Below are positions 5,206 through 62,150 of a stretch of 64,000 bases of DNA, piece after piece. The notes under the pieces are model-generated. The model searched no databases. It was not told the origin of the DNA and saw only the letters and a program-made list of their open reading frames with translations. Each line of letters opens with the position of its first letter. Within the stretch, counting starts at the first letter, position 1. Where the stretch lies: the NCBI GenBank assembly GCA_963735595.1, contig CAVTLK010000004.1, positions 416,001 through 480,000 of the forward strand, written 5' to 3'. The stretch is from an uncultured delta proteobacterium (GTDB taxonomy: Bacteria > Desulfobacterota > Zymogenia > Zymogenales > Zymogenaceae). Position numbers and translations under genes: made by a program.

Positions 5206-5293
5206 TACCGCCTTTCTTGAAAATTGGCTGACTACCGAGTTTCTTATATAGGGTTTTTTATTGTATATTTGTACAATTTGTTATACAAATGAC

Positions 5294-55444: not shown

Positions 55445-56950
55445 ATGGTAAAAGAGATCATTATCAATGCCCATCCCTGGGAAACACGGGCCGCCCTGCT
55501 CGATAACGGGGTGCTGTCCGAGTTTTACCTCGAAAGGCCCAAGGACCTGGGAGTCTCGGGCAATATCTACAAGGGAAAGGTTATCAGGGTAATGCCCGGC
55601 ATGGAGGCGGCGTTCGTCGATATCGGGCTGGAGAAGGCGGCCTTCCTCTATGCCACCGACTTCCTGGACGAGATCGACGAGATGGAGAGCCTGCTGGACA
55701 AAGTCAGCCCCGATTACTTCGAAGGCCTTGAGCAGCCCTACTCGGTCCCCGCGGCCGGCACCGTCGAGATGATGAAGCGGGGCCAGGAAGTGCTCGTGCA
55801 GGTGGCCCGGGAGCCGATCGGCTCCAAGGGCGCGCGCATCACCTCCCATATCTCGTTGCCGGGCAAATACCTGGTGCTGCTGACCATGATGGACCGGGTG
55901 GGCGTATCCCGCCGCATCGAGGATGAGCCCGAGCGAAAGCGCCTCAAACAAATCGTCGAGCAGGTGAAACCTCCCGGAGCGGGCTTCATCGTGCGCACCG
56001 CCGGACAGGGGATGAGCGAGAACGAGATCAAAGAGGACCTCGAGTTTCTCATGAAACTCTCCCGCTCGATCCTGGCCAAGAAGGAGCGGTCCGGCGCCCC
56101 GGTTCTCATCCACCGGGAGCTGGACCTGGGCCTGCGCATGGTCAGGGACCTGCTTACCCAGGACGTCGATGCGCTGATTGTCGATTCCGAGTCCGAGTAC
56201 CACCGGCTCCTGGAATTTGCCGAGTCGTTTCTGCCGCGGGTCGCGGGCTCGATCCGGCGCTACGAGCGCCCCGTGCCGATATTCGAGCACTACGGCCTGG
56301 AGATGGAGATAAAACGTGCGCTGGGCAAGAAGGTCTGGCTCAAGTCGGGCGGTTCTATCGTCATCGAGGGTACCGAGGCGCTGACGGCCGTGGACGTGAA
56401 CACGGGAAAATTCGTCGGGAAGCGGGACCTCGAAGATACGATCCTGCGAACAAACATGGAGGCCGTCCGCGAGATCGCCTACCAGCTGAGGCTTCGCAAC
56501 ATCGGGGGATTGGTAATCATTGACTTTATCGATATGGAGCGGGCCGAGAACCGGGAAAAGGTCTACAACGCGCTGGAAGAGGCGATGAAGGCCGACACGA
56601 AGAAGACCAACATCCTCAAGATATCGGAGCTGGGCATCGTGGAGATGACCCGCAAGCGCACCCGCGAAAACCTCACCCAGGCGCTGGCCGACCCGTGCCC
56701 CTACTGCGACGGCCACGGCTTCTTGAAATCAAAACGCACCGTCTGCTACGAAATCTTCCGGGACCTGATAAAAGGGGCAGGCGCAAAACATGAAAAAGCC
56801 ACGGTGCAGGTGAACCCGGACGTGGCCTCGCTCCTGTATGACGAGGAGCGGGTGTGGCTCGACGACATCGAGGAGCGGTTCGGTATCCGCGTTGCGGTGC
56901 GCGCCGCGCCGCAGTTCCATATCGAGGAGTATGAGATCGGGTGGGGGTAG
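55445..56950 (+). CDS. rng: Ribonuclease G (Rne/Rng family)
   Basis: GNIYKGKV..V.PGMEAAFVDIG, DVNTG, LRNIGG..IIDFIDM, EMTRKR, CPYCDG.G. Confidence 0.95.
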   Translation: MVKEIIINAHPWETRAALLDNGVLSEFYLERPKDLGVSGNIYKGKVIRVMPGMEAAFVDIGLEKAAFLYATDFLDEIDEMESLLDKVSPDYFEGLEQPYSVPAAGTVEMMKRGQEVLVQVAREPIGSKGARITSHISLPGKYLVLLTMMDRVGVSRRIEDEPERKRLKQIVEQVKPPGAGFIVRTAGQGMSENEIKEDLEFLMKLSRSILAKKERSGAPVLIHRELDLGLRMVRDLLTQDVDALIVDSESEYHRLLEFAESFLPRVAGSIRRYERPVPIFEHYGLEMEIKRALGKKVWLKSGGSIVIEGTEALTAVDVNTGKFVGKRDLEDTILRTNMEAVREIAYQLRLRNIGGLVIIDFIDMERAENREKVYNALEEAMKADTKKTNILKISELGIVEMTRKRTRENLTQALADPCPYCDGHGFLKSKRTVCYEIFRDLIKGAGAKHEKATVQVNPDVASLLYDEERVWLDDIEERFGIRVAVRAAPQFHIEEYEIGWG

Positions 56951-56971: not shown

Positions 56972-57019
56972 ATACAATTTGTAGTGGATACCTAATAAGA
57001 TAAACACCATATATGGTGT
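56972..57019. promoter_or_regulatory. Tandem NrdR-box-like operators
   Basis: ATACAATTTGTAGTGG (56972-56987) and the perfect palindrome ACACCATATATGGTGT (57004-57019), starts 32 bp apart; NrdR consensus acaCwAtATaTwGtgt. Confidence 0.7.
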
Positions 57020-57025
57020 TTTTTC

Positions 57026-57054
57026 TTGACTTTCTAGTTCTTTTATGCTAATAT
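57026..57054 (+). promoter_or_regulatory. Sigma70 promoter of the CBASS operon
   Basis: TTGACT-17 bp-TAATAT with extended -10 TG. Confidence 0.75.
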
Positions 57055-57093
57055 AGCGATATTTAATCGAACCTATTGTTTTAGGCTATAAGG

Positions 57094-58617
57094 ATGGCAC
57101 TTCAAGTAATTCCAAGAATTGCTGGCGATGATTTTCAAGCTCGATGGTTTTGGTTTCAAGCTTGCCGACTATTTTCTATTTATAAGACCGTCGATACCGT
57201 AATCTTCGAATCAAAGGAACATGGGGGCTTCGATGATGTGGTGGTGAAGTATAGCCGGCCAATACCTGACGGAAGAGGTAACACCATAAATGCTGATTGT
57301 TATCAAATAAAATTTCATGTTAACCATGCCGGTTCTTTCACATGCGATAAGTTAAAAGACCCAAGTTTTATCGGGAGTAGTAAGGATTCAATTCTTCATA
57401 GACTTAGAGATGCTTACTTAGGAACACTCGGTAAAGAGAAATGCCTGTTTAACATAATCTCATCATGGCCGATAGATCCTAATGATTCACTTGCTACGCT
57501 TGTTGATCAGTATGATAATAAACTTAGGTTAGATGAGGTTCTATTTAATCCTAAGAAGATCCATTTCGTGGGTATTAAGGATGACTGGAAACGAGTTCTT
57601 GGCGTTGCCAATGAAGGTGATTTATACAAGATATTAAGTCAGCTCAGGATAGATACATGGCCGCCTAACCTAAAACTATTTCAAGAAGTTCTTAATACGA
57701 AATTAGAAAACGTAGGGCTACTACCTATAAGCGATGCTTCTATCGGAAGTCTTTATGACGATCTAATTTGGAAACTATACCGTAATGGACTTAATACGTT
57801 CCGGCAGGGCGATATTATAGAAATTGCCAAGAACGAGGGGTTATGGGTAGGAAATAGAATATCGAGCGAAACGAAGTTACGTTTAGGTATTCGTAGTTTT
57901 CATAAATGGGCCGAGTATTTGGAGGATGATACTAGTTCTCTCCTCTGTCTTCTGAAATACTTCGATAATAGAAAACTTAAGAAAGAATATGCATGGACTA
58001 AACACATTATACCAGAGGTCAAAGGTTTCTTGGAATCTTCCCTGAAGGACGAGAATTCTTGTGAACTCATCCTGGATGCTCATTCTTCGATCGCTTTTCT
58101 CGCGGGTTATATATTAAACTCCAAGTCTGGCAAGAAAGTGACGATTAGACAGAAAACGATAAAAGGTGGTATTGAGTTTTGGTCTGGTAGTGAAATAGAA
58201 AATAGCGATAAAAGCGAATGGTGCTGCGAAACGATCGAGAGGGATTCCGGGAAAGCTGACTTAGCCGTAGCTATCAGTATATCTAATAACACTATTGGGG
58301 ATGTGGACGACTTTGTCGGACGCTCATTGCCCGTTGGGAAGATTCTTCATTTAAAGCTTCTGTCCGGGACAAGTCAGGTAGCGATTAAAAACGGTGCCCA
58401 TGCTTTACACTTGGCACAAGACGCAATAAGATTGATCAGAGAACATTACGCGAGAAAAGGGGATAGTACTCGTGTCCATTTTTTCATTTCCGCACCTAAT
58501 GGTTTTACTTTTTTCTTTGGGCAAGCGTCTCACGTATTAGGGAAACTGGTCCTTTACGAGTATGATTTTTCGTCGGGGGTATTGGGTTCCTATGAACCAG
58601 CAGTAGTACTGCCGTAA
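57094..58617 (+). CDS. cap4: CBASS effector: PD-(D/E)xK-like endonuclease fused to a SAVED domain (Cap4-like)
   Basis: N-terminal GDDFQ...FDDVVV...YQIKFH nuclease motif; C-terminal AHSSIAFLAG, VTIRQ, LAVAISIS, VHFFISAPNGFTFFFGQ, LYEYD..YEP typical of SAVED. Confidence 0.88.
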   Translation: MALQVIPRIAGDDFQARWFWFQACRLFSIYKTVDTVIFESKEHGGFDDVVVKYSRPIPDGRGNTINADCYQIKFHVNHAGSFTCDKLKDPSFIGSSKDSILHRLRDAYLGTLGKEKCLFNIISSWPIDPNDSLATLVDQYDNKLRLDEVLFNPKKIHFVGIKDDWKRVLGVANEGDLYKILSQLRIDTWPPNLKLFQEVLNTKLENVGLLPISDASIGSLYDDLIWKLYRNGLNTFRQGDIIEIAKNEGLWVGNRISSETKLRLGIRSFHKWAEYLEDDTSSLLCLLKYFDNRKLKKEYAWTKHIIPEVKGFLESSLKDENSCELILDAHSSIAFLAGYILNSKSGKKVTIRQKTIKGGIEFWSGSEIENSDKSEWCCETIERDSGKADLAVAISISNNTIGDVDDFVGRSLPVGKILHLKLLSGTSQVAIKNGAHALHLAQDAIRLIREHYARKGDSTRVHFFISAPNGFTFFFGQASHVLGKLVLYEYDFSSGVLGSYEPAVVLP

Positions 58618-58638: not shown

Positions 58639-59679
58639 ATGGATCTACCAACCTACTTTAAGGATTTCTTGTCAAATATACGTCTTACAGATTCTCAGAC
58701 TGAAGAACTGAAAAAAGGACACGAACTTCTCAGAAATCGACTTCAAGAGTACGATGAGATATCTAGAACCGTTATCACAACTTTCTTGCAAGGTAGTTAT
58801 AGGAGAGGTACGTCAATTCGCCCCAAACCAGAATCTCTCGCTGATGTCGATGTGGTAGTCGTGACAAACATAGATAAAGGGTCCGTAACACCGGGAGATG
58901 CTCTAAAGCTATTTATGCCTTTCTTAGACAAATACTATAAGGGAAAATATGAAATTCAGGGTCGTTCCATCGGAATCGATATGAGTAAGATATCTTTGGA
59001 TCTTGTGCCTACGACGAGTATGGCTAGTAGAACGACACTAGAGTCCGGCTTTTTTAGGTCAGATAAAACGATTGAAGACTACGAATTTAAAAGACTCGGT
59101 TCCTCATTACCGCTCTTCATTCCGAATCGAGAAGTGGATAGATGGGAGGAAACGGATCCAATAGCACAAATTGACTGGACTATTGATAAAAACGCGAATT
59201 GTAATGGCCATTACGTTAATGTAGTTAAGGCCCTTAAATGGTGGCGTCAGGAAAAACAGTCGAAGCCAAAATATCCCAAAAGCTATCCATTAGAACACCT
59301 TATTGGCCAGTGCTGTCCTGACGGCATTAAGAGCGTTGCCGAAGGGGTAACTAAGTCGTTGGAGGGAATTAAAGATAAATTCGCTGCTGCCGCCCAGCAA
59401 AAAACAACCCCGTTTATTCCAGACCATGGGGTTCCAAGTCATAACGTTTTAGGGCGTGTTTCCGGTGAAGATTTCTCGGCTTTTCATACTCATGTTGGTA
59501 ATGCCGCATCTTTATCAAGAAAAGCGTTCGATTCTGCTGATCTAGAAGAAAGCTTAGAACTATGGGGACAACTGTTCGGAGATAATTTTCCCGATTCAGG
59601 TAATGGCGGTGATAAAGGCGGTGGCTATACAGAACGGAAAAAGAGTACAAATATAGGGGGGAGTCGCTGGGGGAAATAG
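58639..59679 (+). CDS. CBASS cGAS/DncV-like nucleotidyltransferase (CD-NTase, SMODS)
   Basis: FLQGSYRRGTSIRP...DVDVVVV, DLVP, W..TDP, VKALKWW, PKSY.LE; flexible Gly-rich tail. Confidence 0.92.
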   Translation: MDLPTYFKDFLSNIRLTDSQTEELKKGHELLRNRLQEYDEISRTVITTFLQGSYRRGTSIRPKPESLADVDVVVVTNIDKGSVTPGDALKLFMPFLDKYYKGKYEIQGRSIGIDMSKISLDLVPTTSMASRTTLESGFFRSDKTIEDYEFKRLGSSLPLFIPNREVDRWEETDPIAQIDWTIDKNANCNGHYVNVVKALKWWRQEKQSKPKYPKSYPLEHLIGQCCPDGIKSVAEGVTKSLEGIKDKFAAAAQQKTTPFIPDHGVPSHNVLGRVSGEDFSAFHTHVGNAASLSRKAFDSADLEESLELWGQLFGDNFPDSGNGGDKGGGYTERKKSTNIGGSRWGK

Positions 59680-59744: not shown

Positions 59745-61484
59745 ATGATACTAGAAGACTGGTTGTGGTATCCGTCAGTTTCAAAATGGGCTTTACATTG
59801 TCGTTTAAGTATCCCAGTAGTTACATCGGACGAGGTACTTGCCGTAACCGATTGGTATTTCCTTGTTGATGAAATATACCCGTGGGGTGATGTAAAGGTT
59901 CATCCCGCAAAAATAAATGGTATCAGCCGAACATACCAACACCAAATATATAATAGTTATGGCGATAATGATGAACCATGGAGAAACGGTAATATTTGTG
60001 TAAACAACAGCACATACATACTTGGCCGCGGTTATAGTAATGAACCTTATGAATCTCGCGAAAGGTTAGCGTGGAATGTAAAACGAACTATTGATTGGCT
60101 AATTGACGCAAAAAACGGGACCTTAATAAAGCCGGGCGAACCTTTCGAGCTCCCTTATCCCCCCTCCCGCGTAAATGTACCTAGAGTGATCTTTTGCGAG
60201 GACGAAAGTACTTTTAAACTATGGAATACAAAGCACGATACTTTTCTTGGACTTGTATATTTCTTTATATCGTCCACCATTAAAGACACCCTTCTTGTGG
60301 ATCGTTTCTGTGGTTCTAACGGGCAAGAGATATTTAGAATTGATTGGGGGGCAAATTTTGAAAGTAAAAGAAGTAACCCCCTTATAGGTATCTGGTTAAG
60401 ATTTAATGAGCCATTAGTACTTCCACCTTGGCAAGTCCCTTTTAATTGGGGTGAAATCTCAACTGCAGCAGACGCTCAAGGGATAGATTTTCTAGGAGCC
60501 ATACGCAAGATTGCCAGTCATCTTCGTGATGGTAAACCACACGTTCTTCTAATCGGTTTCCCCATACCAGAATTCGTTGGCGATAAACAAGTTAGAATGC
60601 ATTGGCAATCTATCGAATTCCCAATACTACGGCCAGGGAAGAGTTCAATACCAAAAGGTTTTAGAGATAACGAGTCGGGTTGCTGGCAACGAGACAAAAC
60701 ACAAATATTTAGAAACTCCAATTCAATTGGCTGGCTAAGGACGGAAAACTGGAACAGCAGCGAAATCAGGAGCAGGGGCCAATTAGCGAATTCAATCTTG
60801 TCAGAAAGGGTACTTCTTATTGGAGCAGGAGCGGTAGGCTCAGTTATAGCTGAGCTTCTTGTTAGAGGAGGAGTTAAGGAATTAACTATTCTTGATGATG
60901 ATAAAGTAGAGATTGGGAATCTAGTACGGCATAGTCTATCAATGGAGAGTATTGGTAGATCCAAGGCGGAGGCTCTAGCGGATAAGCTTACTAACCTATC
61001 TCCGCACCTAAAGGTAAAAGGCTTTATCAAGAAGATAAAGAGCATGGACGGCGAAGTTATTGATTTGGTTGGAAACTCGGGTATTATCATAGATTGCTCT
61101 GCGTCGGATGATGTACTATATATACTTTCAACGTATAGCTGGCCTTCCAAACGATTTTTCTTTTCTATTTCAATTGGACTCCAGGCAAGAAGAACCTTCA
61201 TGTATAGTTCGTTTTCAGTAAACTTCCCGCATAACAGCTTTATGGAAGAAATGAGTAAATGGCATGAAAAAGAAAGAGAAGAGTCTAAGAATGTTCCTTT
61301 TCCTATGGAGGGAATTGGATGTTGGCATCCTGTCTTCCCCGCTCGCGCTGATGATATATGGTTAACCGCTTCCGTTGCTGTTAAGTACATAAACGAGATA
61401 CTAACGAAACCAGCAGGAAACCAACTAGTGGTTTTCGAGCATATTGGGGATATAGGCTGTTTCGCGGGAATTAGAAGAATATAG
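59745..61484 (+). CDS. cap2: CBASS Cap2 (E2-like + ThiF/E1-like ubiquitin-transferase-like enzyme); true start may lie upstream
   Basis: YPWG...HQ...GNIC (E2-like), LIGAGAVGS, DDD.VEIGNLVRH, IDCS, GIGCWHPVFPA. Confidence 0.9.
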   Translation: MILEDWLWYPSVSKWALHCRLSIPVVTSDEVLAVTDWYFLVDEIYPWGDVKVHPAKINGISRTYQHQIYNSYGDNDEPWRNGNICVNNSTYILGRGYSNEPYESRERLAWNVKRTIDWLIDAKNGTLIKPGEPFELPYPPSRVNVPRVIFCEDESTFKLWNTKHDTFLGLVYFFISSTIKDTLLVDRFCGSNGQEIFRIDWGANFESKRSNPLIGIWLRFNEPLVLPPWQVPFNWGEISTAADAQGIDFLGAIRKIASHLRDGKPHVLLIGFPIPEFVGDKQVRMHWQSIEFPILRPGKSSIPKGFRDNESGCWQRDKTQIFRNSNSIGWLRTENWNSSEIRSRGQLANSILSERVLLIGAGAVGSVIAELLVRGGVKELTILDDDKVEIGNLVRHSLSMESIGRSKAEALADKLTNLSPHLKVKGFIKKIKSMDGEVIDLVGNSGIIIDCSASDDVLYILSTYSWPSKRFFFSISIGLQARRTFMYSSFSVNFPHNSFMEEMSKWHEKEREESKNVPFPMEGIGCWHPVFPARADDIWLTASVAVKYINEILTKPAGNQLVVFEHIGDIGCFAGIRRI

Positions 61485-61497
61485 AACTAAAACGAGC

Positions 61498-61995
61498 ATG
61501 GAAGAGTATAACGAGTTTTGGTCAAGAGATAGGAAATACGGCTTAAATATTTCCAGGATACTCGTAAGGGAAATTTATGAATATTGTAATGAGTCCGGTT
61601 ATCTGGAAACGGGTGGAACACTAATCGGCTACTATAATCGAAGCCGTGATTGTGCATTTGTTACAGCTATAACTCCCGCGCCTAGTGATTCAAGAAGTGG
61701 GTATAGTCGGTTCTATCGAGGTTTTGAAGGTTTACAACATTTGTTAGACCGCTTTTGGGTGGATAAGAGGGAGTATTATCTTGGTGAATGGCATTATCAT
61801 CCGGCATGTCAATCTGATCCAAGTGGATTAGATAATAGTGAAATTTTGCGTATTTCTAGAGATAGGAATTACAATTGCCCGGAGCCAATTCTTATTATTG
61901 TAAGTAGGGCAAAGAATCGTGGTATGAATATAAGAGCGTACGTAGTTTCGAGAGAACTTTCTTTACAGAAACTCCTGAAACGCTATTCTAAATAA
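61498..61995 (+). CDS. cap3: CBASS Cap3 JAB/JAMM isopeptidase
   Basis: ETGGTLIG...YLGEWHYHP....PSGLD (E..HxH..S..D). Confidence 0.92.
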   Translation: MEEYNEFWSRDRKYGLNISRILVREIYEYCNESGYLETGGTLIGYYNRSRDCAFVTAITPAPSDSRSGYSRFYRGFEGLQHLLDRFWVDKREYYLGEWHYHPACQSDPSGLDNSEILRISRDRNYNCPEPILIIVSRAKNRGMNIRAYVVSRELSLQKLLKRYSK

Positions 61996-62090
61996 CGTAG
62001 ATATCGCGAGTTAATATGAGGTATTCTAAGATATATGAACAAATAGTCTTATAATCTCACACTATCTTCCCTTATAACCCCATACCGCCC

Positions 62091-62150
62091 TTGCCATATA
62101 CCAGATCATGCAGTAGTATTATATTAGCACTCACCTCTGTCGAGTGCTAA
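62091..62150 (+). promoter_or_regulatory. groE promoter and CIRCE element (HrcA operator)
   Basis: TTGCCA-17-TAGTAT, then the perfect TTAGCACTC-N9-GAGTGCTAA at 62124-62150. Confidence 0.95.

Follow-up and report, generated by a model that had tools for sequence, protein, structure and literature searches.

NrdR operators have been described at the ribonucleotide reductase (RNR) operons of E. coli (nrdAB, nrdHIEF and nrdDG) and S. coelicolor (nrdAB and nrdRJ), where, in the available portions of PMC13584703 and PMC9110341, two 16-bp boxes are separated by a 16-bp linker, carry C4, A6, T11, G13 and an AT-rich core, and occur in genomes that have nrdR. The promoter examined here, in front of a CBASS operon, shares all of these properties but differs in that its target is an immune operon and its box pair abuts the predicted −35 from upstream and does not overlap the predicted hexamers. 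According to the accessible text of PMC13584703, C4 as well as G13 is critical, A6 and T11 seemingly so, a TT middle is harmless, the AT content has a floor of 63%, an A8T change is tolerated (its Table 5), C5 with G12 in both boxes cost 5-10 fold in binding, and cross-species binding of NrdR was shown. The part of PMC9110341 at hand describes a bound NrdR tetramer that turns the DNA 180 degrees and restricts polymerase access.

Two further described cases bear comparison with this locus. In the available part of PMC12051234, both hexamers of S. pneumoniae nrdHEF (−35 and −10) lie downstream of box 2, as they do here, although the linker of nrdHEF measures 26 bp and its target is an RNR operon. 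P. aeruginosa topA is, like the CBASS operon, a non-RNR target, reported in the accessible text of PMC4409342 to be activated by NrdR; it differs from the CBASS case in having a single box and in the reported activation, which RNA-seq did not reproduce (bioRxiv 2025.03.28.645925). As far as the available text of that preprint goes, RNR operons are the only ones in P. aeruginosa that combine boxes with a response to nrdR loss, which counts against the favoured reading set out below, and no non-RNR gene of that species has more than one box. For CBASS, regulators are described in the available portion of 10.1101/2022.04.27.489752 as responding to ssDNA or DNA damage. The descriptions of CapH/CapP, CapW and CapK/CapS within reach likewise have CBASS transcription controlled by a DNA-metabolism signal, as proposed here, but through dedicated regulators encoded beside the operon, whereas here a conserved host regulator would be borrowed. 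Our literature search, in which subscription journals were poorly covered and supplements fell outside, turned up no paper in which NrdR controls a defence operon. What appears to be new is a known operator type in a new setting, a CBASS promoter.

The CBASS island and its predicted promoter

The four-gene operon in the window (the whole stretch of 64,000 nucleotides that was analysed) is, by its protein matches, an ordinary type II CBASS with CD-NTase, effector, Cap2 and Cap3 all present (Table 1), and the gene order given by the sequence-only reading agrees with the Pfam, PADLOC and PDB matches. We take the CD-NTase to be CdnD, and the inverted repeat in the groES leader is presumably CIRCE-type. 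The protein families are the same four as in type II CBASS with Cap4 and a cyclic AMP-AMP-GMP synthase (PDB 7yib, 7ljl, 7d48); only the promoter is unusual. The island consists of these four genes between rng and groES, and its ORF list holds no regulator or RNR gene, which bears out the sequence-only reading, and no integrase; no CapW- or CapH/CapP-type regulator gene was found beside the operon.

Table 1. Features of the CBASS island and its flanks, in window positions
Feature	Position	Strand	Basis and remarks
rng (RNase E/G family), host gene bordering the insertion on its left	55445..56950	+	Pfam PF10150, E 1e-104
NrdR-type box 1	56972..56987	.	ATACAATTTGTAGTGG; C4, A6, T11, G13, TT middle; 12.9 bits
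NrdR-type box 2	57004..57019	.	ACACCATATATGGTGT; perfect 16-bp palindrome, reaching 20 bp with flanks (57002-57021); 19.9 bits
T-rich 6-bp gap, box 2 to −35	57020..57025	+	read from sequence
Predicted sigma-70 promoter	57026..57054	+	TTGACT (57026-57031), 17 bp, TAATAT (57049-57054) preceded by TG extension; 9/12 consensus match, consensus only; start site predicted near 57061
Cap4-type effector, nuclease + SAVED (SAVED/PD-(D/E)XK)	57094..58617	+	PF18145; PADLOC effector E 9e-150; PDB 7yib Cap4 E 4e-62
CD-NTase (SMODS), related to cyclic AMP-AMP-GMP synthases	58639..59679	+	PF18144; PDB 7ljl/7d48 E 7e-95
Cap2 (E1-E2)	59745..61484	+	PADLOC E1-E2 E 3e-198
Cap3 (JAB)	61498..61995	+	PF14464, PADLOC JAB
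Inverted repeat in host groES leader	62124..62150	.	sequence

Alignment showed that similarity to relatives ends just past the rng stop codon and returns near 62000. A match to rng was found in seven of nine family genomes, and in all seven the groES leader follows rng within ~150-330 bp; the stretch after rng holds neither an nrd gene nor a CBASS, and its best pair scores 2.6 bits. Since the rng-groES site is empty in these relatives, the boxes either came with the island or arose on it. On this comparison the operon is horizontally acquired, and newly so. The GC content is 29% in the spacer between rng and the effector, 41% in the CBASS operon and 60% in rng and groESL. The spacer itself is 143 bp long and contains no tRNA or other donor remnant. 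BLAST found no source copy of it elsewhere in the host's own genome, and its resemblance to the G003 spacer was not significant, as 1536 of 2000 shuffles scored as high.

The sequence-only reading placed two boxes 32 bp apart, start to start, with the second a perfect palindrome and the pair ending 6 bp upstream of the −35; the sequence agrees on each point, and the promoter holds as a consensus match. The pair does not overlap the predicted hexamers, whereas most nrd pairs of the phylum do, and an UP element would fall in the T-rich gap. No plus-strand terminator was predicted between rng and the boxes, the palindrome itself excepted, so read-through from rng may also feed the CBASS operon. 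Because the RNR gene of this genome is frameshifted, a one-base error in homopolymer lengths here, for instance in the T run ahead of the −35, is conceivable. When four contig sets from sequencing runs were compared with the region, one 229-base piece matched, in the effector, and no long piece spanned the promoter, so that these sets showed no strain variation.

Match of the box pair to NrdR operators

We scored the pair with a matrix that excluded the host's own genome and drew on relatives, in which 14 of 30 RNR loci gave a clear pair; the loci were chosen by eye, and the 16 without a clear pair in the available stretch were dropped. The seed consensus used to locate these pairs was one that we assumed. 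Box 2 is the top single site of the genome, and the pair (12.9 + 19.9 = 32.7 bits) ranks first among all 31-32 bp pairs in the 3.6-Mb genome, ahead of the host nrd pair (25.5 bits) and of the next one (19.4). It lies within the leave-one-out range of the phylum nrd pairs (15.5-38.9 bits, n = 14) and outscores 10 of those 14 real pairs, and 32.7 bits was never reached in 6.1e7 simulated positions of spacer or island composition. The sequence-only reading had envisaged a matrix from the genome's own nrd promoters; ours was drawn from the RNR promoters of relatives instead.

C4, A6, T11 and G13 are present in both boxes when checked against the available rules of PMC13584703, the AT content between C4 and G13 is 88% and 75% against the floor of 63%, and the 16-bp linker falls inside the 15-16 bp rule. 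By matrix score, then, no other pair in the genome matches an NrdR operator as well as these boxes, and their identification as NrdR-type stands, with rank 1 and every critical base in place. Box 2 has C5 and G12, which calls for caution on binding strength. The genome contains 140 perfect palindromes of at least 16 bp, so the palindromy of box 2 means little alone.

The nrdR gene that this identification presupposes is there, as one intact copy with zinc ribbon, ATP cone, Asp15 and Arg17. A single RNR gene was found, on another contig, with a promoter in which TTGACA is followed by a 31-bp box pair; this gene (G000 C2:527451-529505) is broken by several frameshifts, which are probably assembly errors. 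In this genome, which is 93% complete, a class III RNR was looked for and not found.

Other sites in the host genome resemble single boxes or weaker pairs. One 19.1-bit box (G000 C5:107093) sits 5 bp before a TTGACG and has no partner at 31-32 bp; the start of the gene downstream looks to us like smc. At G000 C4:363723, inside a long intergenic region, DnaA-box-like words are interspersed with the 19.4-bit pair, and the site is possibly an origin or a promoter hub. A dispersed palindromic repeat has a 16-bp core that mimics a single NrdR box (C4:288825, C4:321217, C4:427862, C2:629606 and C2:654485).

NrdR-type pairs at other promoters

Of the homologous CBASS loci, which the sequence-only reading proposed to scan, 0 of 96 (84 metagenome/viral and 12 genome/plasmid) carry the box pair. 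The 84 loci with the same effector cover 747 kb, 55 of them being non-duplicate with their own upstream region, and no 31-32 bp pair above 13 bits occurs anywhere in them; the 12 loci with the same cyclase have no pair upstream, and none occurs at the plasmid homologues from Enterobacter and Salmonella that were examined. An effector-only scan of the genome collection gave three loci, and a partial match outside the main homologue scoring (L224) scored −1.3 bits. These loci are distant, with effectors 29-44% identical, none above 42% at full length, and hosts mostly unknown. The pair therefore does not appear to be a feature of this CBASS family, and its absence counts against the favoured reading set out below, with the reservation that the kin compared share at most 42% full-length effector identity.

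Of the 125 other CBASS loci examined in all, 4, in two lineages, have a pair before the first gene; a borderline pair at L091, which scores 14.6 bits, has a weak first box and lies 370 bp ahead of the cyclase, was left out of this count. Three are Rhizobiales type III CBASS loci with pairs of 14.3, 26.2 and 20.6 bits, and the fourth is a two-gene DncV-like CBASS in G305, preceded by a 26.6-bit pair with TTGCCA in the linker. The simulated AT-rich background at 20 bits is ~0.0006 per 330 bp, so the four pairs are not due to chance. In the Rhizobiales loci (L038, L039 and L255) the pairs lie upstream of an AAA ATPase gene, the third shifted by one box unit, and a Bradyrhizobium homologue of that system (L256) scored 1.3 bits. 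The G305 pair (L097:7783-7829, C291) overlaps the predicted promoter, a Replic_Relax gene adjoins, and next to the DncV-like cyclase the effector is without a Pfam or PADLOC match. None of the four pair-bearing loci has a divergent regulator at the promoter, whereas at 11 pair-less plasmid CBASS operons a regulator is annotated in that place (CapH/CapP-like, XRE, WYL or another kind), albeit in small numbers.

Beyond CBASS, a type II R-M operon in G204 is preceded by a 25.5-bit pair. In G317 a near-identical promoter cassette is duplicated, once before a type II R-M operon and once ~460 bp upstream of the TIR gene of a ThsB-like TIR cluster, with pairs of 35.8 and 33.5 bits (C15, L343:3197-3243 and 5235-5281) and TTGACA in the linker. 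The G305 and G317 defence pairs overlap hexamers in the fashion of repressor sites.

Across the phylum, a strict pair pattern gave ~241 sites in 168 of 401 genomes, with 14 in the reversed control. We fetched 111 sites, chiefly from multi-match genomes, so that RNR is under-represented; RNR genes account for 21 of them and other positions for 90, and of the subset that was annotated most precede housekeeping or regulatory genes. The annotated non-RNR targets include dnaE, a UvrD-type helicase, mutS, mraZ, hfq, CO dehydrogenase subunits, kinases, WYL regulators, tRNA and rRNA, and the defence targets among the annotated sites are the three in G204 and G317. Defence thus appears to be a minority target of the phylum's NrdR-type pairs, and the 90 of 111 sites away from RNR genes count against the favoured reading set out below. 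Individual non-RNR pairs, at L225-L254, L100-L139 and L271-L341, also precede PAS kinases, 16S rRNA, tRNA-Val and tRNA-Arg; in two genomes of one family, pairs of 33.8 and 36.4 bits (L345 and L346) lie 200-350 bp upstream of WYL-domain regulator genes. In viral stretches the strict pair occurs at the right spacing in at least 120, versus 14 at the wrong spacing, a count that possibly includes prophage-flanking host DNA.

The layout of the CBASS promoter, a pair followed after 4-7 bp by TTGAC, was matched 32 times in 28 of 401 genomes, the host included, and once in the reversed control, though three of the matches score low and look like chance. Its targets are mostly tRNA, kinase and regulator genes; it stands before tRNA-Val, tRNA-Arg, PAS kinases, a response regulator, ParA-like genes, mraZ and one class II RNR, and the 4-7 bp gaps in these other promoters are mostly T-rich. 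The two central bases, left free in the pattern, are AT in 27 of 28 upstream-class boxes, and the motif columns of this class match those of nrd boxes. No example was found in the nine other genomes of the host family, and the host's tRNA genes have no pair above 6.8 bits within 450 bp upstream. At none of the 21 RNR-linked sites is the upstream position the sole one serving the RNR gene (TTGAC stands on both sides at one of them and has no match at seven), which also counts against the favoured reading. These comparisons suggest that the CBASS promoter belongs to a phylum promoter type otherwise absent from its own family, and that it would be one of a wider, apparently undescribed set of NrdR-type operators, a set whose breadth looks well beyond that of the regulon in model species. 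Among the loci compared the pair is private to this operon copy, and it probably came with the island from a same-phylum donor, the layout being in wider use in the phylum. A link between NrdR and CBASS in particular, as the sequence-only reading had put it, is not borne out, given the 96 homologous loci without the pair and the housekeeping genes served by the same layout across the phylum; what stands is the recurrence of tandem boxes at four other CBASS loci, two R-M operons and one TIR cluster.

Proposed regulation and rival explanations

We lean slightly towards a reading in which host NrdR binds the pair and damps CBASS when dATP is high, with expression when replication draws dATP down. 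NrdR loaded with dATP/ATP would occupy both boxes, bend the DNA and obstruct the stretch beside the −35; counting five flanking bases, the edge of its footprint would fall at 57024, abutting the −35 and covering the alpha-subunit zone. Idle replication would then mean repression, and use of dATP by the cell or a phage would bring release, so that defence would be linked to the growth or replication state generally, beyond phage. What the analysis shows is the sequence, its score, the intact nrdR, the empty site in relatives and the recurring layout; binding, repression over activation and any benefit in infection we infer. Taken separately, that NrdR binds the pair is very probable, that it measurably controls this CBASS operon is fairly likely, and that infection-triggered release matters for immunity is doubtful. 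The supply of dNTPs is raised by many lytic phages, and this would tell against dNTP depletion as the trigger, as the sequence-only reading had it; alternatively, phage-borne operators could soak up the repressor.

It is possible that the island simply carried a donor promoter of the common upstream-pair type, in which case NrdR may bind while the link to immunity would be incidental and unselected. This is what 0 of 96 homologous loci would lead one to expect, the layout is absent from the nine other family genomes and the host's own tRNA promoters, and the closest sequence to box 2 and the −35 among the fetched loci is a tRNA-Arg promoter, identical at 21 of 22 bases. Against this, both boxes are near-optimal and above most nrd pairs, the 143-bp spacer shows no tRNA or other donor remnant, and pairs recur before unrelated defence operons in other layouts, and we consider this explanation unlikely. 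Activation is more unlikely still; here NrdR binding would turn CBASS on at high dATP, for example when a phage drives host DNA breakdown. The sites are centred near −50 and −82, usual activator positions, and topA offers a reported precedent through a single box (PMC4409342, in its accessible text). However, topA was unchanged by RNA-seq in the available text of bioRxiv 2025.03.28.645925, upstream boxes occur also at an RNR operon, S. pneumoniae nrdHEF (PMC12051234, in the part at hand), and the G305 and G317 defence pairs sit over hexamers as a repressor's would. The nrdHEF precedent, and the fit with growth-linked targets such as tRNA, are the reasons we favour repression.

Two further explanations dispute the identity of the boxes or their origin. 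That the boxes belong to some other protein sharing the motif, or are left over from the genome's palindromic repeat, is improbable: several of the next-best single sites are repeat copies with a core one or two bases off box 2, and the phylum's wide target range is unlike the NrdR regulons of model species, but box 2 is without the G/C arms of the repeat, whose copies make no pairs at 31-32 bp, the upstream-class motif columns equal those of nrd boxes, and the ~241 strict 31-32 bp pairs in 401 genomes stand against 14 in the reversed control. A relic promoter, left behind when an nrd gene was displaced from this position of the chromosome, is an alternative raised in the sequence-only reading and has nothing for it beyond the motif. 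It is contradicted by the rng-groES junction of all seven relatives with an rng match, where there is no nrd gene and no pair (best 2.6 bits), and the host RNR gene sits on another contig with a pair of its own, making a local relic highly improbable.

Returning to NrdR repression, a bolder and rather unlikely extension is that defence operons (CBASS types I-III, R-M and TIR) have repeatedly been wired to NrdR, with phage replication turning them on by dATP drain or repressor titration, and that the phylum's NrdR is a broad growth-state regulator acting also upstream of the −35. If NrdR does control this operon, a borrowed regulator would provide a ready-made read-out of nucleotide supply for a defence operon without a regulator gene of its own, and would differ from the known CBASS regulators, which are dedicated DNA-damage-sensing proteins. 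It would also extend an NrdR regulon that model-organism work limits to RNR operons. The wider phylum pairs, at tRNA, dnaE, mraZ, mutS and kinase genes, may be no less important than the one at CBASS.
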